Source of the DNA: an uncultured Rickettsiales bacterium
GTDB taxonomy: Bacteria > Myxococcota_A > UBA796 > UBA9615
DNA: 64,000 nt
Assembly: GCA_964490445.1 (NCBI GenBank)
Contig: CAZBDA010000002.1
Coordinates: 6,078-70,077 of the forward strand
Direction: 5' to 3'
Position numbers and translations under genes: made by a program. Positions 5,822 to 15,272 of this stretch are shown piece after piece (the stretch's first letter is position 1; each line of letters begins with the position of its first letter). The notes under the pieces were generated by a model that saw only the letters and a list, made by a program, of their open reading frames with translations, was not told the DNA's origin and did not search any database.

Positions 5822-6751
5822 TCAACGTCCGAGCAGTCGGGCGGCAACCCGAGCAACTCGTGGGTCCGGATCCGAAAGCAACTCCGCCAGGTTCGGCAGC
5901 TTCACGGTGGCTGACTCGTCGATTCGAGACAGCGCCCGCAACGAGTGCAGACGGACATCAGCCGAAGGGTCACTGAGCAACGGCAGGAGCGGGCCAAACG
6001 CGGCGCCGACCTCGCGCCAACCGAGGGCACGGGCAGCCATGGCACGAACTCCCGCATCGGCATCGCGGACAGCCTTGAGCAGTTGGTCGGCGTAGTCAGC
6101 ACCATCGCTACGCCAACCCACCGATCGGCAGGCCTCAGCGCGGACGCTTGGGACGTCGTCTCCCAACCCGAGTGCGATCCCCTGCCCTGCCGGTGCAGCA
6201 GCAGCCCGACGCATCGACCACACCAGCGCCTCGCGCACATCCGGCATTGCCTCGTCGCGGAGCAGCCTTGTATTGAGTTGGTCCCAGTCCGCGCGCAGGC
6301 CGATCAGCGCCGAGGCCAGGGCCGCGCGCAGCTTCGGCGACTCACCGCCATGAAGGAGGCGCTCAACAACGGCTGGACGAGCTGCCGGATCCCGGAACTG
6401 CGCCTGGGCAAAAATGGGGCGGCCTGCGCGGTCGAGGACAGGGGCAGCAGCACTTACCTCGGCGAACAGCGCCCGCCGATGCCGCCAGCCGAGGATCACC
6501 TCGCTCTGCTGGCGAACCCGCCAGTCCGGGTGCGAAGCCAGGGCCGCCAGGGCCTCGTCAGCCACGAAGCCATCACCGCTCAGCGTATCTCTTTGCAGCG
6601 AGTAGTCGGTGCTGGCCTCGTGCAGGCTGAGCAACCTCTCGCTGAGACCACCCTCGGCAAGAACACTCGCAGGCGCGAGCGACAGAGCCAATGCCGCCAC
6701 CATCGCGGCGACAACAAAAGGAGAACCGGGCCTCGCGAGCAGCGGCAGCAT
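5822..6751 (-). CDS. HEAT-repeat (PBS-lyase-like) secreted protein
   Basis: Signal-like N-terminus (MLPLLARPGSPFVVAAMVAALALSLA). Repeated ..D.D..VR..AA.ALG.. HEAT/PBS motifs. Abuts the stop of the upstream PAD gene. Confidence 0.55.
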   Translation of the reverse strand: MLPLLARPGSPFVVAAMVAALALSLAPASVLAEGGLSERLLSLHEASTDYSLQRDTLSGDGFVADEALAALASHPDWRVRQQSEVILGWRHRRALFAEVSAAAPVLDRAGRPIFAQAQFRDPAARPAVVERLLHGGESPKLRAALASALIGLRADWDQLNTRLLRDEAMPDVREALVWSMRRAAAAPAGQGIALGLGDDVPSVRAEACRSVGWRSDGADYADQLLKAVRDADAGVRAMAARALGWREVGAAFGPLLPLLSDPSADVRLHSLRALSRIDESATVKLPNLAELLSDPDPRVARVAARLLGR

Positions 6752-8448
6752 CAGGGTTGCTCCTCCAGCAGGTGCCCGGCGACTTCCCACCAGTTCGCGG
6801 ACGGCGTGCGAGTAGCATTGCTGCCGCAGTGCACTTCGCCCAGGCTCATGTGATAGACGGACCAGTTGTCGACGAAATGAAAATCGATGTACTCCGGCAT
6901 CATCTCTTCGACGTGCGCGATGAAGGGATCTTCATCCTGGCCGATCGAAGTTTGTGCCGTACTCCGCATGAAGGGATCTGCGAGAAACACGTCGGTCCGG
7001 TCCCCGCGATTGGTGACGAACATGTTGGCCATACCCGGAATCAGCGCCGCCACGTAGCCACCACAGCCGGGGGGCTCTTCGAACAGCGAGGGCATGCGCA
7101 GGATGTCTTCCTCTTCGAGGGCGAGCTCGGACTTGACCTGCTCGAGTAGCGGGTCCAGGTAGTCCTCCTGGAGTTCCTCGTTCAAGTAGCGGATGGCGTT
7201 GGAATCGAGGAAGTCGTCGACGTAGTCGAGATCGTGGCCCCCAGGGTAAGGCAGCGCATAGCGCGGCAGCGGAAGGTTCGGATCCATGGACTCCAGCAGG
7301 TCCCAGGCTGCACCCGTGTCGGACCACACAAAGCGAAAGCCCTTGGGCGACGTTGGGTCCGGAACGAAGGAGCTGACCTCGTCGATGTGGCTTACGCAGA
7401 GCCAGGTCGTGTCGATGCGGAAGGGATTCTGGACCGCCTGGCTGGCCAGGAAATCGGTGAGCTCTTCGTCTGGATGAAGTCCGTCGTCACCACCGAAGTA
7501 GATCCGACCAAAGGGATAGTGAACACCGTCTACGGTGACCGGCGGGCTCACTTCGAGATTCCCGAACGAGTCCAGAGAGTTGACGGACGAGGTGTCACCC
7601 CAGGTCATCACGACCCAGTCAGGCTGCTCCAGTTCGTCCTCGGGGTAGCGGTCCAGCGGCCGGTCGCGAATCGAATCGACGACAATGTCGTTGCGCAGCC
7701 CGGGAGCAGTGGTCAGACCGAACTGGAACTCGTCCTGTACCCAGGGATCTCCGCCGTAGGTTGGCCCATCGATTGGCGTGAACATGTCCCCGAGTACGTC
7801 CTCGAAGACTGCGAGCATCTGCTGGTTGTTGTAGTTCGGTCCCCCGTCGGAATCGAGTACCCAGACCTCCTCGGTCTCCTGCAGGTGGTGATTGAGGATC
7901 AAGGGCGACGAGGTCAGGTGAATCCGATCGGACTCGAGCACTTCATCCCCCTCGCGCCACTCCAGGGTCAGCGTCGCCCGGACGAGGAACTTGCGAAACT
8001 CCAGCCGGTACTCGATGTCCTCCTCGGCCGCGTGGACGCGATGCTCCTCGACGTGGCCACCTTCGACCTTGCCGAGGGCCACCCTGCCATCGCGCCACAA
8101 GCGCAGGTCACCCTGGTCGCCGCCCAGCACCAGGTAGATTCTCTGGCCTTCCTTCACGCCTGTGAACACGTCGGCCTTCAGCCATAGCGACGCCAGGTCG
8201 TTCTCTTCAGCGAGCAGCTCACCCTCATCCCAATCCACGCGGCCGTTCTCGTTGTCGTCATCGAGATTCGGGATCCCCACGAAGCCCGGAAAGGTGTGGC
8301 CCGCGCCTTGGGGATAGGCATCGGGGAGCGTGATGGTCACATCCGGCTGCGGACAACCGACGAGCAGGAGCCCAGCCCACAGCAATGCCAACCTCACGCC
8401 TGAACGCGGCAGCGGAAACTCGGTACTGGAGTCACCGATCGACATCAA
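6751..8448 (-). CDS. protein-arginine deiminase (PAD) family lipoprotein, eukaryote-type
   Basis: Lipobox LLLVGC|PQ. The C-terminal catalytic domain carries the PAD4-like motifs LDSFGNLEVSPPVTVDGVHYPFGRIYFG, TWLCVSHIDEVSSFVP.P.SPKGFRF and the catalytic-Cys motif GEVHCGSNATR. Confidence 0.8.
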   Translation of the reverse strand: MMSIGDSSTEFPLPRSGVRLALLWAGLLLVGCPQPDVTITLPDAYPQGAGHTFPGFVGIPNLDDDNENGRVDWDEGELLAEENDLASLWLKADVFTGVKEGQRIYLVLGGDQGDLRLWRDGRVALGKVEGGHVEEHRVHAAEEDIEYRLEFRKFLVRATLTLEWREGDEVLESDRIHLTSSPLILNHHLQETEEVWVLDSDGGPNYNNQQMLAVFEDVLGDMFTPIDGPTYGGDPWVQDEFQFGLTTAPGLRNDIVVDSIRDRPLDRYPEDELEQPDWVVMTWGDTSSVNSLDSFGNLEVSPPVTVDGVHYPFGRIYFGGDDGLHPDEELTDFLASQAVQNPFRIDTTWLCVSHIDEVSSFVPDPTSPKGFRFVWSDTGAAWDLLESMDPNLPLPRYALPYPGGHDLDYVDDFLDSNAIRYLNEELQEDYLDPLLEQVKSELALEEEDILRMPSLFEEPPGCGGYVAALIPGMANMFVTNRGDRTDVFLADPFMRSTAQTSIGQDEDPFIAHVEEMMPEYIDFHFVDNWSVYHMSLGEVHCGSNATRTPSANWWEVAGHLLEEQP

Positions 8449-8547
8449 GGTGCCCTCTGGGATTGCGGGTTTGACCAGAGCGTCGCCGACGCCTGACGAG
8501 GCACAACACGACAGCGGCGAAAGTATAGGGCAGCCATGGGGGTTTGT

Positions 8548-9504
8548 TCAGGAATTGTCGTGCCCGGTTCGGTCCTCTACAGCCCAGTAGTGCTGCTTCA
8601 TACAGAACACCGACCCACCAGAAAGCAGAAACTCGCTCGTGTCGAGTCCGAGGACTTCGAAACCTCGCTCGGTCAGCCAGTGAGTGACCCGCTCGGAGCC
8701 CTGCTGCATGAGGACGTGGCGACCGTCCGGGCTGTGGCCGTTGCAGGCCATCCGCATCGCCTCCTCCTCGGTGACCGCCAACGGTTCCTCGAACAAAGTC
8801 TCCAGCATCCGCAACCCGTTCTCGTCAAAAGCGTCCGGGTAGTACAGGGCGGTCTCGTCATCCAGCACCGACAGGCAGGTATCCAGGTGATAGAAGCGGG
8901 GATCGGACAACTGGAAGACCACAATGGGCAGGCCCGTCCAGGCCTGCAGGTACCGATAGGCCTCGGCGCTGCTGCGTGGCCCGACCCCAGCGTACAAGAG
9001 CGCCCGACCCGGGTGCCAGAGAGCATCGCCACCACCCTCGAAGGAGGGCACGTGAAAGGGGTTGAGCCGCTCGATGTGCAGCCCGGCAGCGGTCAGGAAG
9101 TCGGCGACCTGCACGGTCTCGGCCTGCCGCCTGCCCCACTTCATGATGGAGACCACAGCCCCGGGCTCAGGCCCGAGCAGCCCCGCCGGAAGGGGCAGAG
9201 CCTGGTTTGCCGTGAACACGAAGTCGGGAAGCAACGGCACACCGGGCAACACGTCGACGGGAACCCCCAACGACAGGTAGGCATCGTGCAGACTCTTCCA
9301 CTGACAGCGAGCGGCAAACCTGTCGACCCGCCCCAGGTTGCCGTCCATGTGGGGATTGATGACGTACTCGACGTCGAAGAACTCCGGATCAGCCATCAGC
9401 AGCCGGTCTGGGCGCGGCAGTACCGGGAGGTCTACAAGTCGAAAGGAGACGCCCTCGGCGGTGGTGACCAGTCCCATGGCCGAAGCGTCAGTCGGCTGCT
9501 CCAC
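8548..9504 (-). CDS. DDAH-like enzyme, amidinotransferase/guanidino-group-modifying superfamily (dimethylarginine dimethylaminohydrolase-like)
   Basis: The C-terminal motif LGLDTSEFLLSGGSVFCM matches the DDAH active-site end (DTSEY.K.DGGVSCMS). Size is about 318 aa. No signal peptide. Confidence 0.65.
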   Translation of the reverse strand: MEQPTDASAMGLVTTAEGVSFRLVDLPVLPRPDRLLMADPEFFDVEYVINPHMDGNLGRVDRFAARCQWKSLHDAYLSLGVPVDVLPGVPLLPDFVFTANQALPLPAGLLGPEPGAVVSIMKWGRRQAETVQVADFLTAAGLHIERLNPFHVPSFEGGGDALWHPGRALLYAGVGPRSSAEAYRYLQAWTGLPIVVFQLSDPRFYHLDTCLSVLDDETALYYPDAFDENGLRMLETLFEEPLAVTEEEAMRMACNGHSPDGRHVLMQQGSERVTHWLTERGFEVLGLDTSEFLLSGGSVFCMKQHYWAVEDRTGHDNS

Positions 9505-9525
9505 CCCGGATGCTCCCTGCTCGCC

Positions 9526-11460
9526 TTAGTCGGCGATCACCAGCAGCGGGTAGGTGATGTTCTGCGTCTTGCCCTCAAACGGCGGGAAGCGCAGCGCGTT
9601 CACCTCGCGACTGATGCAGGTGTCCAGAGCAGTGCCTGCGTAACGAGACGTGGTAACCCGCGCTCGAGAGACCTGGCCGCTGGGAGCGATCTTGAACTTG
9701 ACGTAGATCTTGCCGGACAGGTCCGGGTCACGGGTTTTCTGCGAGGTAATGCATCGCTTGATGGATTTGTTGCTGCCGATGATGGTCTTGATGATGAAGG
9801 GGTTCGGCGCACCACCCGACGACTTGCTTCCAGAGTCCTTCTTGGCACGCTTGGGCTGCGAGGTGCGTGGGGTCGACGAGGAGCGATCAGCCGACCGGGA
9901 GGCGACCGGTTGCTCAGACCGCCCGGAGGCGCTACGACGCTGGTAGCTCCCGTTAGAGTCACTGCCGGCGATCTCGTCGCTGGGCTGGTAATCCCGTCTG
10001 CGCGAACTGGCCTCACGGCCCGAGTGCGAGCCGCGCCGTTCCGGCACCTTGTCATCAAGTCTGCTCGCCGAGGCCGTTTCCTCGAGGTCTTCCAGGTCGG
10101 ATGCTGACAGTCCAGGCATCACCGGCTCACGGGCCTCGCGGCGAGTTTCACGCTCGCTGCGACGGCTGGAGCGCCTTTCGGCCTCGCGCTTCGCAGACGA
10201 CTCGGATTGCTCCTTCCGGCTGGACTCGGAAGCGGCGCCCCGCGCCGGAGTTTCAACCTCTTCGGCGGGCGGTGTCGCGACCGTGGAGGGGGTGGGCGTA
10301 GCGACCGCACCGCTACCACCTGCAACAGACGCCACCTGCACTGCGGGCCGCGCGGAAGTCTCAGCCTGCAGCCCCTCGTCGGACGAAGCTGCGTCGGAAC
10401 CATCGGAGGGGCTGTACAGGGCAAAGGAAAGGCCTGCACAACCCAGCCCCATCACCACTCCGAGCACCATCGCCGAGGGCAGCTTGGCCGGCCAACGGCC
10501 CTTCTCTGTAACCAGGGCAAGGGCCATGGTGCCCGCTGCGCCGAAGCCCGCCAGGAAGTACCCCAAAGCAGCGAGGCGGCCAGGAACCAGGATGATGAGC
10601 AACAATCCGAGGAAAGCAACGGCTCCGAGCACCCCCGATGTACCGAGCAACGGCGATCCCTGGTGCTCGACCTGGGTGACGGAGGTGTTGCTCGGCGCAG
10701 CCTCGCCCGACGGCGACGTATAGCCCCTACCCATCGGCGACGGCTGGGTCGGGGGAGCCACCGGAAGGGATGGCTGCGATGGCTGGGAGTAGGGCATCGG
10801 GCGCTTGGGGCCTTCCAGCGGCATCGCGGGAATGGCTGCTGGGCCGGCGGCGCTCTGTGCAGCCGCAGCACTCAACACCGGACCCGACGGAGCCGGACCC
10901 CGGTAGACCTGAGTTTGCGGATTGTCCTTGGCAGGAATCGGCGTCATCACGGCGGCACTGGCCGAGCCGTTTCCGGAAGCCGGCGCAGGGGTTGGCGACG
11001 ACATTGGCGCCGAACTCGGCGGAGTGCGGCTCGGAGGCTGGTTCAGACCCGGAATCGAACTGCCCACGGGTAGGGTTCGCGCCGCGTCGGATGGAGCGAC
11101 CGCAACGTCCGCGCCGGCCTGGGCGGCAGGACCGAGAATCGCGGCACTGCTGCCGCCCGAAGCCGAGCTCGGCGCGGAAATAGCGTGCAACTCTGCGGTG
11201 AGGCTGCCCAGGGAGGGCAGGCCGCCATTGGTCATCTGCGCTAGCTTCTCGATGTCGTGGGCCGAGGGGGCAGCAGCCTCGCCGCCGTCAGCGACGGGGC
11301 TGACATTGCCCTTGAGTGTCGAGCGAGCCGAGGCCGGATTGTGGCGAAAGATCACGATCTTGTGCCCGCAGCGCTTGCACGTGGCCCTGTTGATCTCCTT
11401 GACCAGCTTGTGGTCAGCGATCTTGTAGATGGCCTCGCATTTGTCGCAGACGACTCTCAT
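9526..11460 (-). CDS. MJ0042-type zinc-ribbon / TonB C-terminal domain protein (GltJ/AgmX-like architecture)
   Basis: N-terminal CxxC...CxxC zinc ribbon (VVCDKCEAIYKI...CKRCGHKI). Long Pro/Ser/Ala-rich linker, TM helices, a charged low-complexity region, and a C-terminal TonB_C-like fold (IYVKFKIAPSGQV...TYPLLV). Confidence 0.6.
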   Translation of the reverse strand: MRVVCDKCEAIYKIADHKLVKEINRATCKRCGHKIVIFRHNPASARSTLKGNVSPVADGGEAAAPSAHDIEKLAQMTNGGLPSLGSLTAELHAISAPSSASGGSSAAILGPAAQAGADVAVAPSDAARTLPVGSSIPGLNQPPSRTPPSSAPMSSPTPAPASGNGSASAAVMTPIPAKDNPQTQVYRGPAPSGPVLSAAAAQSAAGPAAIPAMPLEGPKRPMPYSQPSQPSLPVAPPTQPSPMGRGYTSPSGEAAPSNTSVTQVEHQGSPLLGTSGVLGAVAFLGLLLIILVPGRLAALGYFLAGFGAAGTMALALVTEKGRWPAKLPSAMVLGVVMGLGCAGLSFALYSPSDGSDAASSDEGLQAETSARPAVQVASVAGGSGAVATPTPSTVATPPAEEVETPARGAASESSRKEQSESSAKREAERRSSRRSERETRREAREPVMPGLSASDLEDLEETASASRLDDKVPERRGSHSGREASSRRRDYQPSDEIAGSDSNGSYQRRSASGRSEQPVASRSADRSSSTPRTSQPKRAKKDSGSKSSGGAPNPFIIKTIIGSNKSIKRCITSQKTRDPDLSGKIYVKFKIAPSGQVSRARVTTSRYAGTALDTCISREVNALRFPPFEGKTQNITYPLLVIAD

Positions 11461-11679
11461 GGGGCTTTCCGAAGATGAGAGAGTGAGCAGAACACCGATC
11501 GGCTGGACCGGCGGAGATGGAGATTTCTACGATAGGGCCGCATTTAAGTCAATAATTAGTCAAGAGTTGCCGATTGCTGAGCTCCAGACGATTGTCCGGG
11601 CCAAATCGGCGAACTCAAGTTGAGTGCACCCCATCCGAGATGCGAAGCGCATCGTGGGGCAGCCTGCTAGGCTCCTGCC
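11461..11679. promoter_or_regulatory. AT-rich divergent intergenic region; probable promoters for the zinc-ribbon/TonB gene (-) and the dNK operon (+)
   Basis: A 219-bp non-coding gap in dense high-GC DNA. Local AT-rich island ...atttaagtcaataattagtcaagagttg... with a direct AGTCAA repeat. Confidence 0.3.
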
Positions 11680-12312
11680 GTGCCGCATCCAGGTGCCAAA
11701 CCACGCAAGTTCATCGCCGTCGCCGGCAACATCGGTGCCGGCAAGTCGACCCTGGTGGACTTCCTCTGCCAGACCTACGGATTTCGGCCGTTTGTCGAGC
11801 CCAACCTGCTCAACCCCTACCTCGACGACTTCTACCAGGACATGTCGAAGTGGTCCTTCCACTCCCAGATCAGCTTCCTGAGCCACAAGTTCCGACTGCA
11901 CATGGAGCTGATGTCCGAGCCGGCGACCGTGGTTCAGGACCGCACGATTTACGAAGACGCCGAGATCTTCGCCCGCCACCTACACTCCGTTGGCCACATC
12001 TCGGATCGGGACTTCGCCACCTACAACCACCTGTACGAGGCGATGCAGAAGGCCCTTGCTCCCCCTGACCTGCTGATCCGGCTCAATTGTTCAGTGCGGG
12101 CTCTACGCAAGCGCATCCGCAAGCGCGGCCGCAAGAACGAGCAAGACATCCCAGCCACCTACCTGAAGCAACTCAACCAACTCTATGATCGCTGGTTCGA
12201 ACGCTATGAACTCTCTCCGGTAGTCGAGATCAACACCGAGAAACTCGACTACATTTCGGATTTCCTGGACCGCCTCGAGGTACAGAACGCCATGGAGCCC
12301 TTCTTATTGTGA
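11680..12312 (+). CDS. deoxynucleoside kinase (dAK/dGK/dCK family)
   Basis: P-loop AVAGNIGAGKST, the DRTIYED..IFA motif and an overall ~210-aa dNK layout. Its stop overlaps the start of the next gene. Confidence 0.8.
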   Translation: MPHPGAKPRKFIAVAGNIGAGKSTLVDFLCQTYGFRPFVEPNLLNPYLDDFYQDMSKWSFHSQISFLSHKFRLHMELMSEPATVVQDRTIYEDAEIFARHLHSVGHISDRDFATYNHLYEAMQKALAPPDLLIRLNCSVRALRKRIRKRGRKNEQDIPATYLKQLNQLYDRWFERYELSPVVEINTEKLDYISDFLDRLEVQNAMEPFLL

Positions 12313-15272
12313 GCATCACCGTCCAGCTCTGCCGCACGACTGCACTGCTCGGCCTGCTCGCGCTGCTCGTGGCCGGCTGCCCGAAGCAGAAGGAGATCCC
12401 ACCTCCCGAGGCGCCCCAGGGCGAGGGGCCGATCGACAAGATCCTGGACCTGTTGGAGCGGGACCGCGACGACCTGAGCCTGCCTCGCTCCGAAGAAGCT
12501 GGTTACCAGTTACCGATGACCTACCCCGTCGTGGAAGCGGCGCTCTCCCGCCCCCTCGCTGTGCCTCCCTGGGCCGAGCAACTGGGCGCTCGCCTGGACG
12601 CTGCTGGCAACGCCGGACAATTGTGGGCGGCCCTGCGGCCGCTGTCGCCAGCGGGATCCGCAGCAGACCCACCACGAGGCGAGACTGAGCAGGCGGTCGC
12701 GGGCAGCCCAGAACCGCGCCTGCGTCGCACATCTCCGGCGGCGCTGCCGCGGGACGCCTTCGCAACCAAGCAGGCCGCCGTGCAGACAGAGCAACTCCCA
12801 GAGGAGTTCGTCACCCTACTGGTGGAGTTGGCCGGGCTGCTCCAGGACCTCGAAGCCGAAGCCGAGAGCTGGTATCGACTCGAGGGCTTGATCCGCCGAC
12901 CCAATCGCGCCGCCGAGGAGTTCTTCATCGACCGCTACAGCGGCGAGTTCCGCTTCAGGACCCATCCGGTTGGAGTGCAGCTTGAGTTCCTGCGCAGCGC
13001 CATGTTCATCGACCAGCAAGCGATCAGCCGTTCCGCCGCCAGGCTGGTGCTGGAACTTGAGCGCCTTTTGCCGCTGCTGGCAACTGCCGCCAAGGAACTG
13101 CCCGACAGCGGGGGCCGCCTGCTGCACCTGCCCACCCGACTCGGCCCAATCATCGTCGGCAGCACCGGTAGCGACCTGCACGAGGAGGATGCCTTCCTGC
13201 TCGTTGACCCCGGCGGTGCCGACCAGTGGCACAACAACGCCGGCTCCAATGTCGGCCTCAGCTCTGCCCTTGCGCTGGCCGTCGACCTCGACGGCAACGA
13301 CCAGTACCGGAGCAACCGTGGCCACAGCCAGGGAGCCGGCTTCATGGGCATCGGCATGTTGGTGGACTGGGGCGACGGAAACGACCAGTACACGGCTGGC
13401 GCGCAGAGCCAGGGAGCCGGCTTCATGGGTATCGGCATGCTCTGGGAGCGGGGAGGCAACGACTCCTACCGTAGCTATGGCTTCAGCCAGGGTGCCGGCA
13501 CCTTCGGCGTCGGCGTCTTGCTCGACGAAGGAGGCGATGACCGCGCAGTGGCCGGCAGCCGTGCCCAGGGATTCGCCTCCAGCGGCGGACTCGGCGTGTA
13601 TCTCGACCTCGCCGGCAACGACGAGCGTCGCATCGGCACGCCCAGCGGCAAGGAAAACAGCGTCGAAGGTGGCGGCGGACAGGGAACCGCCTGGGGGACG
13701 CGTCCCTTCCCCTGGACCAACGATCTCAGCCTGCATGGCGGAGTCGGCCTTCTCTACGACCGTGCCGGCAACGACCGCAATTTCGCACGCGCCTACGGAC
13801 AGGGCAGCGCCTGGTTCCTGTCGTTGGGCCTGTTGCTGGATCGAGCCGGCAGCGACCAGTACCTGTGTGGCCAGAATTGCCAGGGGAGTGCCGAGCACCT
13901 GGCGGCTGCACTGCTGCTCGACAGCGACGGCAACGACCGCTACGAGGGCAGCCAGGACCTCCAGGGCTTCGCCGACGACCGATCCGTGGGGATCCTGTGG
14001 GACCGAGGAGCGGGCTCGGATCTGTACCGACTCGCGGAACGGGGCCGCGTGAAACCCGCCGAAGTCGGCCGAGGGCAGGGCTACGCGCGCCAGCCCCACG
14101 CACTCGGAGTGCTGGTCGACAATGGCGGCGACGACCAGTACGTGTCCTTTCGGGAAGCTCTCGGCCACGCGGAGCCGACCCGGCACCCGGGTCGCAATCC
14201 CACCGCCCTGCTCATCGACCTGGCCGGGAAGGACCGCTACACAGAGGGACAGAGTCGTGCTGGCGCCATTCCCCGCGACAAGAGCACCTGGCTGCAAGGC
14301 GACCATGCCGCCGGACTCGACACTTTCGTCGCCTCACCCGGCTGGGACGTTGCCAGCTTCGAGCCGGCAGAAGGCTTTGCCGGGCTCGGTTGGAACCGAG
14401 CCCTCCTCGATCCTCCTCCCGCGAATGATGACAACGAGACCGCTGCTGGAAACACCTCCGAAGATTCCTCCAACGACGTCGCCATACCTGCTGACAGCGA
14501 CCGATTCACCCCCGACGGCGATGCCGTAGCCCGCTGGACCTGGCTGCAGAACCGATACCGAGAGCGCGTCACCACGGAGCCGACAGCAGCCCTGGAAGAG
14601 CAGGAGCTTGACCAGTTGCGCCAACTGGCAGGCAGCGACCCGTCGACAAGCGTACGTCGCGAAGCCGCCCGACTCCTGGTCAGCGCAGGCGACACCCTTG
14701 GCCTACGGGTGCTCATCGCCTCCCTTGGCCATGCCAGCCAGGACAATCCAGGTGGCAAGCGGGGTACCGGCGAACTGGGCGCATTCCTGAACCTTGTCAC
14801 AGGGACGGGGCTCCACTTCGACGCCGAACAATGGAGCCGTTGGTTCCAGTCCGAGGGCAAGGATCTGGACCTGGCGACTCGTTGGCCTGCCGTTGCGCTG
14901 CTGGAGGCCGCCGCGGCCTCGGCGACGGCCGGCGAGATCGAGAAAATGGCAGACCAGTGCATGCAGGCCCGCGAACTCCTTCCGGACGACTCCTGGATAG
15001 ACGCCCGATCCGGGGCACTAGTGGGCCACTGGGCCTGGGTACTCGGGCATCCCGAGTCGCACGCGAACCGCAACGCCGACCTGGCAGTGGAGTTGGCAAC
15101 TCTCTGGACCGTCTGGCACCCCGACACCGCACAATCCTTCATCACCCTGGCCCAGGCCTGGTTCACCCAGGGGGAGTACAAGCTCGCTAGCCTGGCGCTG
15201 GACAAGTCGGCAATTCTCGACCCCGACAACATCCGAATGACCGCCCTGCGACGCGCCATGGAGAATCGATAG
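12309..15272 (+). CDS. large repeat lipoprotein (N-terminal helical region, ~11 tandem ~27-aa G[ND]D.Y...QG.G..G.G.L.D repeats, C-terminal HEAT/TPR-like region)
   Basis: Lipobox LLVAGC|PKQ. Repeat units such as GNDQYRSNRGHSQGAGFMGIGMLVDWGD / GNDQYTAGAQSQGAGFMGIGMLWERG. A near-identical 30-mer occurs at 13329 and 13413. C-terminal TPR-like helices. Confidence 0.6.
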   Translation: MSITVQLCRTTALLGLLALLVAGCPKQKEIPPPEAPQGEGPIDKILDLLERDRDDLSLPRSEEAGYQLPMTYPVVEAALSRPLAVPPWAEQLGARLDAAGNAGQLWAALRPLSPAGSAADPPRGETEQAVAGSPEPRLRRTSPAALPRDAFATKQAAVQTEQLPEEFVTLLVELAGLLQDLEAEAESWYRLEGLIRRPNRAAEEFFIDRYSGEFRFRTHPVGVQLEFLRSAMFIDQQAISRSAARLVLELERLLPLLATAAKELPDSGGRLLHLPTRLGPIIVGSTGSDLHEEDAFLLVDPGGADQWHNNAGSNVGLSSALALAVDLDGNDQYRSNRGHSQGAGFMGIGMLVDWGDGNDQYTAGAQSQGAGFMGIGMLWERGGNDSYRSYGFSQGAGTFGVGVLLDEGGDDRAVAGSRAQGFASSGGLGVYLDLAGNDERRIGTPSGKENSVEGGGGQGTAWGTRPFPWTNDLSLHGGVGLLYDRAGNDRNFARAYGQGSAWFLSLGLLLDRAGSDQYLCGQNCQGSAEHLAAALLLDSDGNDRYEGSQDLQGFADDRSVGILWDRGAGSDLYRLAERGRVKPAEVGRGQGYARQPHALGVLVDNGGDDQYVSFREALGHAEPTRHPGRNPTALLIDLAGKDRYTEGQSRAGAIPRDKSTWLQGDHAAGLDTFVASPGWDVASFEPAEGFAGLGWNRALLDPPPANDDNETAAGNTSEDSSNDVAIPADSDRFTPDGDAVARWTWLQNRYRERVTTEPTAALEEQELDQLRQLAGSDPSTSVRREAARLLVSAGDTLGLRVLIASLGHASQDNPGGKRGTGELGAFLNLVTGTGLHFDAEQWSRWFQSEGKDLDLATRWPAVALLEAAAASATAGEIEKMADQCMQARELLPDDSWIDARSGALVGHWAWVLGHPESHANRNADLAVELATLWTVWHPDTAQSFITLAQAWFTQGEYKLASLALDKSAILDPDNIRMTALRRAMENR
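13280..14325 (+). repeat. intragenic tandem repeat array (~81-bp period, degenerate) encoding the GND.Y...QG.G repeats
   Basis: Repeated agccagggagccggcttcatggg(c/t)atcggcatg and ggcaacgaccagtac-type segments at regular spacing. Confidence 0.6.

Follow-up and report, generated by a model that had tools for sequence, protein, structure and literature searches.

A probable two-gene module of an exported protein-arginine deiminase and a HEAT-repeat protein, beside a DDAH-like gene that probably belongs to a separate unit

Two enzymes that modify guanidino groups, a DDAH-like hydrolase and a protein-arginine deiminase (PAD), are encoded one after the other, followed by a gene for a HEAT-repeat protein, in a 64,000-nucleotide (nt) stretch of DNA from an uncultured bacterium (GenBank assembly GCA_964490445.1, contig CAZBDA010000002.1, positions 6,078 to 70,077 of the forward strand). 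This whole stretch is referred to as the window, and its coordinates are used throughout. An initial annotation, made from the sequence alone, considered the three genes a dedicated arginine-modification or citrulline module, and it found the pairing puzzling because one enzyme was predicted to be cytoplasmic and the other a lipoprotein. The question raised by this locus is whether the three genes form one functional unit. The answer that we favour, which on balance is probably the right one, is that they belong to two functionally separate, co-oriented units: an extracytoplasmic PAD-HEAT pair and a cytoplasmic arginine-catabolic hydrolase.

The open reading frames (ORFs) of the three genes were confirmed on the minus strand between 5822 and 9504, and the Pfam results agreed with their labels. 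The PAD gene (6751–8448) has a TTG start giving a product of 565 residues, with an ATG also present at 8445, and the HEAT gene (5822–6751) encodes 309 residues. The latter had been described as abutting the PAD stop codon, and stop and start do overlap, as TGATG (6749–6753, minus strand). The ORF list placed the HEAT start at a GTG at 6790 (5822–6790); this was replaced by the ATG at 6751 in view of the TGATG overlap and of a Shine-Dalgarno sequence, GGAGGAG, lying 6 nt upstream of this ATG within the 3' end of the PAD gene. Independent gene calls on identical metagenome contigs gave a PAD of 564 residues, a HEAT protein of 309 residues and an overlap of 1 nt. The TGATG sequence is, by its features, a predicted translational-coupling junction. 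On the other side of the PAD gene, the gap to the DDAH-like gene, first estimated at about 100 bp, measured 99 nt (8449–8547). The localisations proposed for the three products were also reproduced, the DDAH-like protein having no hydrophobic N-terminus, the PAD a lipobox and the HEAT protein a signal peptide.

The PAD product matched Pfam family PF03068 with 220.2 bits (cut-off 25) over residues 172–555, corresponding to positions 3–395 of the 395 in the profile. A phmmer search against the PDB retrieved human PAD2, PAD4, PAD3 and PAD1 (E-value 2e-44) with the motifs WxQDE, HxDE (HVDE in human PAD2) and EVHCG aligned. The catalytic residues D239, H354, D356 and C541 aligned to those of human PAD2 and were invariant in 27 relatives; we take this set to correspond to D350, H471, D473 and C645 of PAD4. 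Both arginines of a DSIRDR motif are kept, R261 being invariant in the family and R263 its consensus residue, and the second is presumably the equivalent of Arg374 of PAD4, which touches the backbone of the substrate peptide. The AlphaFold2 (AF2) model of the protein, with a predicted local distance difference test (pLDDT) of 86.7 and a predicted template-modelling score (pTM) of 0.84, was matched by Foldseek to PAD4, PAD1, PAD3 and PAD2 over about 540 columns (E-value about 5e-41; query template-modelling score, TMq, 0.70–0.76, and 0.74–0.76 for PAD4). Because the model superposes on PAD4 over this length, the approximately 140 residues N-terminal to the catalytic domain are predicted to form the immunoglobulin-like (Ig-like) domain of PADs. 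Neither PAD_N nor PAD_M of Pfam matched residues 33–176, even at E-values up to 10, and the gatekeeper Arg of GDRW is replaced by Pro, so that the hallmarks of the three-domain animal and cyanobacterial PADIs are lacking. The domain junction carries an LNHHLQ motif.

The N-terminus of the PAD contains the lipobox LLVGC, whose Cys32 is kept in 90% or more of the aligned relatives, and because of this conserved lipobox the enzyme is predicted to be a lipoprotein acting outside the cytoplasm. Further on, an Asp-rich motif, NLDDDN, occupies residues 61–66, and N61, D63, D64, D65 and D72 are invariant in the relatives. We take this arrangement to resemble the acidic calcium sites of the middle domain of PADs, in the region of calcium sites 3–5, and by analogy NLDDDN is probably a calcium-site motif. 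An exhaustive HMMER search with the PAD retrieved 1,704 cluster representatives at E ≤ 1e-3 and 272 at E ≤ 1e-30. Among the distant relatives (P0373, P0387, P0408, P0425 and others, 31–38% identity) the PAD domain stands at the C-terminus of proteins of 1,600–2,860 residues, an architecture that differs both from that of animal PADs and from the PAD-HEAT pair.

The HEAT protein is an alpha-solenoid of PBS-lyase-type HEAT-like repeats, which were detected in its C-terminal half by the Pfam families HEAT_2 (66.7 bits, cut-off 27.7) and HEAT (58.8 bits, cut-off 23.5), and it begins with a Sec signal peptide ending in ...ASVLA/EGG. Only designed alphaRep proteins matched it in the PDB, so its fold is generic. 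In a MAFFT alignment of 76 partners the only strongly conserved feature outside the repeats was P..TRAG..RF, with Arg108 present in 97% of them; in the window it reads PVLDRAGRPIF (residues 104–114; 6410–6442, minus strand). From its conservation this loop is a candidate site of contact with the PAD, or a candidate pseudo-substrate. A homologue search with the HEAT protein, whose recovery was limited by a word prefilter, gave 48 matches, of which 34 were orthologue-like proteins of about 300 residues and none was a fusion.

The PAD alignment was scanned against one genome per GTDB species, which yielded 289 relatives, and the locus counts that follow rest on the best 80 of the loci of these 289 relatives, with at most 10 kb of flank on each side. 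With the window proteins as tblastn queries, a HEAT homologue was found directly downstream of the PAD and on the same strand in 73 of the 80 loci. A profile built from the 76 partners raised this figure to 75, or to 76 of the 77 informative loci. In three loci (L007, L015 and L042) the contig ends less than 300 nt past the PAD; L018 holds a tandem PAD-HEAT-PAD array (7455–11482) on a contig that ends soon after the second PAD, and L050 is the sole locus truly without a HEAT partner. A still higher count, 79 of 80, came from single-linkage clustering of six-frame ORFs and was rejected in favour of the hidden Markov model count of 75, since ORFs from alternative frames of the PAD genes had entered the cluster. 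The PAD of L050 (6294–8066) has an extra N-terminal Cys-rich segment, CDPDDCGG...CWCDDLCVQYGDCCSDKAAVC, with a somatomedin-B-type look, and its downstream neighbour is encoded on the other strand. The distance from the PAD stop to the first HEAT start codon is -4, -1 or 0 to +6 nt in most of the 80 loci, and in nearly all of them the HEAT N-terminus shows a signal peptide or a lipobox of its own. All-against-all clustering of the ORFs in the 80 loci revealed no other conserved neighbour of the PAD.

At least three metagenome-assembled genomes (MAGs) contain two separate PAD-HEAT loci each (L034/L054, L036/L058 and L040/L071), which, together with the array of L018, suggests paralogous expansion of cognate pairs. 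The labels of the loci name Myxococcota or unclassified (delta)proteobacteria or are implausible MAG labels, and two of the loci belong to cultured strains, Enhygromyxa salina DSM 15201 and Paraliomyxa miuraensis SMH-27-4 (L019, L017). The window has a G+C content of about 64% and matches contigs of uncultured marine metagenomes. Record titles such as "uncultured Rickettsiales" or "Enterobacterales bacterium" (L001, L004, L006, L009, L012 and others) are, in view of the gene content and the G+C of about 64%, almost certainly mistaken.

PAD and HEAT domains were also found on a single chain. The P0115 protein (799 residues) combines a PAD domain at 171–541 with HEAT_2 at 608–689, and P0352 (761 residues) combines them at 163–520 and 674–754; the HEAT half of P0352 aligns to the HEAT protein of the window with an E-value of 2e-23. 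Because these two proteins have diverged to 43% identity over 746 residues, and because no signal peptide was found in an alternative frame at the P0115 junction, the fusion is, judging from the sequences, not an artefact of assembly but a form that has been retained in nature. A third candidate, P0361 (812 residues), was discarded, as the extension at its C-terminus does not resemble the HEAT partner in sequence. In the AF2 model of P0115 the region homologous to the HEAT protein is all-helical. A mixed alignment of fusions, PAD-only and HEAT-only sequences was also tried for structure prediction and was discarded, since the HEAT-only rows were placed on the PAD region. The PAD and HEAT genes of L077 share a reading frame that is apparently interrupted by only one stop codon (11495–11500), so that one substitution could turn them into a single-chain protein of the P0115 or P0352 kind. 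That PAD and HEAT work together as a true functional pair, most simply as a complex, is strongly supported by their nearly invariable adjacency, the translational coupling, the export signals that both carry and the natural fusions.

The third gene encodes an enzyme of a different kind. It lies at 8548–9504 on the minus strand and yields 318 residues from a GTG start, or 309 from an alternative ATG at 9477. Its product passed the cut-off of the Pfam family DDAH_eukar only marginally (33 bits, cut-off 23), and every DDAH equivalog of NCBIfam scored under its cut-off: DdahMtb 206.7 of 300 bits, DdahStm 53.2 of 340 and Ddah 22.2 of 450. Its label as a DDAH is consequently imprecise. The best of these models, DdahMtb, represents the Rv2323c type of Mycobacterium tuberculosis. 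The ArgZ/AgrE equivalogs also remained under their cut-offs (Arg_dihydro 174.5 of 450 bits, bifunc_ArgZ 171.9 of 1025). In the PDB the only matches at E ≤ 1e-3 were the N-terminal domains of two cyanobacterial arginine dihydrolases, ArgZ (Sll1336) and AgrE (Alr4995), with an E-value of about 1e-39 and 38% identity over about 270 residues. The protein has a single domain, and the match is confined to residues 6–266 of the approximately 700 residues of ArgZ/AgrE. Its C-terminus, ...EFLLSGGSVFCM, had been said to match closely the active-site end of DDAH. An active-site Cys motif is indeed there, but it aligns to the active-site Cys region of ArgZ/AgrE, the Cys being residue 301, and the Cys-His-acid set, being shared by all of the guanidino-modifying superfamily, does not single out a DDAH. 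Besides Cys301, His206 (in YHLDT) and FEGGGD (155–160) align to conserved positions of ArgZ/AgrE, and we take Cys301, His206 and the acidic motif to be the catalytic residues.

ArgZ acts in free-arginine catabolism. Its mycobacterial relative Rv2323c is required by M. tuberculosis for growth on free arginine and for proline synthesis from arginine (PMC4569260). The family is widespread (more than 5,330 matches at E ≤ 1e-10), and homologues about 50% identical to the window protein occur in Rhodothermus marinus, Rubricoccaceae and Bacteroidota. No PAD was found near the homologue in the two outgroup contexts inspected (one from Rhodothermus and one from a metagenome contig), where ordinary housekeeping genes surround it. 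In a Myxococcota MAG (L081; GCA_023150875.1, 6001–8880) a 51%-identical homologue is separated by 45 nt from a biosynthetic-type arginine decarboxylase gene, which is followed by shikimate-pathway genes; no PAD was found near this homologue either, and the context hints at a role in free-arginine metabolism. By analogy with these enzymes, the DDAH-like protein is most likely a cytoplasmic hydrolase of free arginine or of a close analogue, and "DDAH" annotations in the Rv2323c/ArgZ-like branch would be better read as free-arginine hydrolases.

Whether this gene belongs to the PAD-HEAT unit was judged from its distribution. Eleven of the 80 loci (L001–L007, L010, L026, L031 and L053) have it upstream of the PAD, and 69 lack it; the same adjacency was seen on three further metagenome contigs reached from the DDAH-like side. 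The 11 loci share synteny with the window. In 10 of them a GltJ-like gene is directly upstream, as in the window, and many also carry a deoxynucleoside kinase (73–87% identical), a 987-residue protein, LivM or TrkA. They form two adjacent clades in a neighbour-joining tree of the PADs. Because they share these further genes of the window region, the loci with the DDAH-like gene would all come from one organismal lineage. The adjacency amounts to one or at most two historical events and is indistinguishable from chance followed by inheritance. The initial proposal of a three-gene arrangement conserved in relatives thus stands for these 11 loci and for none beyond one syntenic lineage; of the module itself, the PAD-HEAT part is sustained by the 75 loci, the coupling and the fusions, and the DDAH-like part is not.

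The GltJ-like gene (9526–11460, minus strand) encodes 644 residues with an MJ0042-type zinc ribbon (Pfam Zn_ribbon_4), a long Pro/Ser/Ala-rich linker and an AgmX/PglI-type C-terminal domain, and it matched the NCBIfam model myxo_SS_tail with 62 bits (cut-off 40). Its identification as a gliding-motility protein of the GltJ/AgmX type was rejected, since it reached only 83.9 bits against a GltJ cut-off of 450 and only the zinc ribbon and the C-terminal domain matched; it resembles GltJ/GltG. Together with the three genes discussed above it fills the minus strand between 5822 and 11460 with four co-oriented ORFs, separated by 21, 99 and -1 nt, and the DDAH-like gene starts 21 nt past its stop. 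Of the 14 distinct loci of the lineage outside the window, at least 12 contain it together with the DDAH-like gene, and in L083 the two genes overlap by 1 nt. In the related loci the gap from the DDAH-like gene to the GltJ-like gene ranges from -1 to about 44 nt, and that to the PAD from roughly 10 to 275 nt.

In the window, the spacer between the DDAH-like and PAD genes holds a sigma-70-like promoter match, TGAACA-17-TATACT (8550 to 8522), and the consensus scan gave 2 matches where 0.5 were expected. A CCCTATA(C/A)T or CCCTTATACT box is repeated in the spacers of L001, L002 and L031. An element of the CTTGACCGAAAC type, exact in L007 and L085 and variant in L003 and L005, occurs with a -10-like box in these four spacers. 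This element lies about 31–33 nt upstream of a -10-like hexamer of the TATAnT type, too distant for a standard -35 box, and it may be a regulator-binding site. Alignment of the spacers was too divergent to inform on a promoter. Taken with these motifs, the spacer gives a hint of a separate PAD-HEAT promoter.

In the reading that we favour, the first unit would be a conserved, translationally coupled two-gene module (6751–8448 and 5822–6751), and the second (8548–9504) would hydrolyse free L-arginine to citrulline, or onward to ornithine, in nitrogen and arginine catabolism and would stand beside the PAD in one lineage only. The puzzle of a cytoplasmic enzyme next to an exported one is resolved most simply by two unrelated units. 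A true triad would instead mean that the DDAH-like protein, as an arginine dihydrolase or citrullinase, salvages citrulline or arginine from PAD-modified proteins once these have been degraded and imported. Such salvage would account for the differing compartments, ArgZ-type enzymes go via a citrulline intermediate, and PAD identity goes down to 42% in the group with the DDAH-like gene. However, most PAD-HEAT loci lack the gene and have no substitute in its place, and the wider synteny of all carrier loci reduces them to one inherited event. In addition, the homologues about 50% identical in Rhodothermus and Bacteroidota, in the two contexts seen, have no PAD, and another adjoins an arginine decarboxylase; the gene is tighter to its GltJ-like neighbour than to the PAD; the promoter-like element of the 99-nt spacer is partly conserved in relatives, and the two enzymes are in different compartments. 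With all this we consider the triad very unlikely. Several observations nevertheless weigh against the division into two units or against the picture of its PAD-HEAT half. The block of GltJ-like, DDAH-like, PAD and HEAT genes remains intact, in at least 12 of the 14 related loci, while both flanks change, a pattern that some selection for linkage could produce. The search for terminators between the four co-oriented and closely spaced genes gave no convincing one, so that read-through co-transcription of the DDAH-like and PAD genes is possible. A -10-like hexamer is only weakly enriched upstream of the PADs: it occurred in 3 of 14 loci, where shuffling gave 0.4 on average and 3 at most, and none appeared in the loci lacking the DDAH-like gene, partly because gene starts were only approximated. 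As regards the pair itself, no interface between PAD and HEAT could be inferred from the AF2 model of P0115 built with PAD-only rows (pTM 0.64), which shows a disordered linker at 541–575; no conserved neighbour gene hinting at a substrate was present in the loci, and the PAD of the window has Gln242 where the family consensus is Glu, at a probable calcium site.

For the PAD-HEAT unit we propose that the lipid-anchored and probably calcium-dependent PAD and its HEAT partner would be made in roughly equal amounts and would come together beyond the cytoplasm, whether in the periplasm or on the cell surface, as an approximately 1:1 complex. The PAD would convert peptidyl-arginine into peptidyl-citrulline on envelope, secreted or foreign proteins, and the HEAT solenoid would be an obligate accessory subunit, serving as a substrate-recruiting or regulatory scaffold. 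We put forward only tentatively, as a possibility short of an even chance, the stronger form of this proposal, namely that the pair is a previously undescribed two-component system of extracytoplasmic citrullination of marine Myxococcota, fused in some lineages, in which the PAD works only with a cognate HEAT protein that selects or gates its protein substrates. The HEAT protein could otherwise be a dedicated inhibitor, immunity protein or chaperone, keeping the PAD inactive or shielding the envelope of the producer until the site of action is reached, for example outer-membrane vesicles or the prey cells of a predatory myxobacterium. An effector gene tightly coupled to a small cognate gene is the usual layout of toxin and immunity pairs, several genomes have multiple pairs in which each PAD has its own HEAT gene, both proteins are exported, and the Arg of the TRAG..RF loop could act as a pseudo-substrate. 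However, two divergent single-chain PAD-HEAT proteins would be unusual for such pairs, the PAD lipoprotein has no secretion-system or toxin-delivery domain recognisable with Pfam, PADLOC returned only a generic 20-bit HEAT match with no polymorphic-toxin hallmarks, and no conserved secretion genes were found near the PAD in the 80 loci; this explanation seems unlikely to us. Even less probable, in our opinion, is that the PAD works extracellularly on free arginine, small peptides or arginine-rich antimicrobial peptides, deiminating them to scavenge nitrogen or to protect the cell itself, with HEAT as a binding protein. Against it, although not decisively, stand the two arginines retained in DSIRDR, the second of which we take for the backbone contact of PAD4, and a fold that, with its Ig-like domain, matches the protein-modifying PADs. 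It agrees with the extracytoplasmic, anchored position of the enzyme, with the lack of a protein substrate encoded nearby, and with the precedent of a PF03068 PAD from Streptomyces whose substrate is a small lasso peptide with its gene at a different place in the genome (bioRxiv 10.1101/2020.07.16.207027).

Beyond the four-gene block, the window contains on the plus strand a deoxynucleoside kinase gene (11680–12312) and, overlapping it by 4 nt, a gene for a probable lipoprotein of 987 residues (12309–15272), with many GNDxY/GxDxY-like repeats and without a Pfam family. The pair is kept in the same lineage (42–58% identity), in either orientation relative to the PAD block. Searches for Rfam and tRNA features gave none within the window.

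Citrullination has been studied almost wholly in animals and in one oral pathogen, and the roles of bacterial PF03068 PADs are largely obscure. The clade found here is large, with at least 80 loci, and in it the PAD is exported and lipid-anchored, as predicted from its N-terminus, and nearly always coupled to one specific HEAT partner. It also provides experimental handles: a partner for pull-down, natural fusions to express and cultured strains for knock-out. If the proposal is true, no bacterial PF03068 PAD with a dedicated partner would have been known before, and the pair would point to programmed citrullination of proteins of the envelope, the matrix or the prey in free-living bacteria. 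The succession of two guanidino-modifying enzymes would not amount to a pathway here, and the proposed triad is probably an accident of synteny.

When compared with known systems, the DDAH-like protein shares its Cys, His and acidic active-site residues with ArgZ/AgrE but, unlike them, has no C-terminal half similar to ornithine cyclodeaminase. With classical DDAH (EC 3.5.3.18; Pseudomonas, Streptomyces and eukaryotic types) it has in common the superfamily and the C-terminal motif with the nucleophilic Cys, and no DDAH was found among its PDB relatives at E ≤ 1e-3. As to the PAD, human PAD2 and PAD4 are similar to it in catalytic residues and in structure (TM about 0.75, 24–27% identity). However, those enzymes are cytosolic or nuclear, whereas the PAD of the window lacks PAD_N, has Pro in place of the Arg of GDRW, and is predicted to be exported, lipid-anchored and provided with a dedicated partner. 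PPAD of Porphyromonas gingivalis is also a bacterial deiminase of peptidyl-arginine that works outside the cytoplasm. Its secretion goes through the type IX secretion system, and we know of no HEAT partner for it. Its family is a different one, PF04371, and it does not depend on calcium (bioRxiv 10.1101/2020.07.16.207027); Pfam gave no match to PF04371 in the PAD of the window.

Within PF03068, a Streptomyces PAD makes the citrulline of citrulassin, and a survey of 837 bacterial PADs in the same study reported "highly diverse" contexts with no conserved partner and judged this diversity too great for the contexts to be informative (bioRxiv 10.1101/2020.07.16.207027). A full-text search for PAD together with myxobacteria or HEAT repeats gave nothing relevant, and no paper in the literature library searched described the PAD-HEAT pairing. 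As an enzyme the PAD adds a new member to a known family, and it is the obligatory exported PAD-HEAT pair that is apparently undescribed. The closest comparison is with the "two-domain PADI" of fungi, actinobacteria and proteobacteria, which has a histidine-rich domain junction and for whose proteobacterial members neither export nor a partner is mentioned (Cummings et al., 2021; PMC8826395). The PAD of the window is like these two-domain PADs in family, in fold, in the Asp-His-Asp-Cys set and in having an Ig-like and a catalytic domain without PAD_N, and its LNHHLQ motif is comparable to their histidine-rich junction (PMC8826395). Unlike the two-domain PADs described, it is a predicted lipoprotein whose gene, in its clade, is almost always followed by a translationally coupled gene for an exported HEAT protein.

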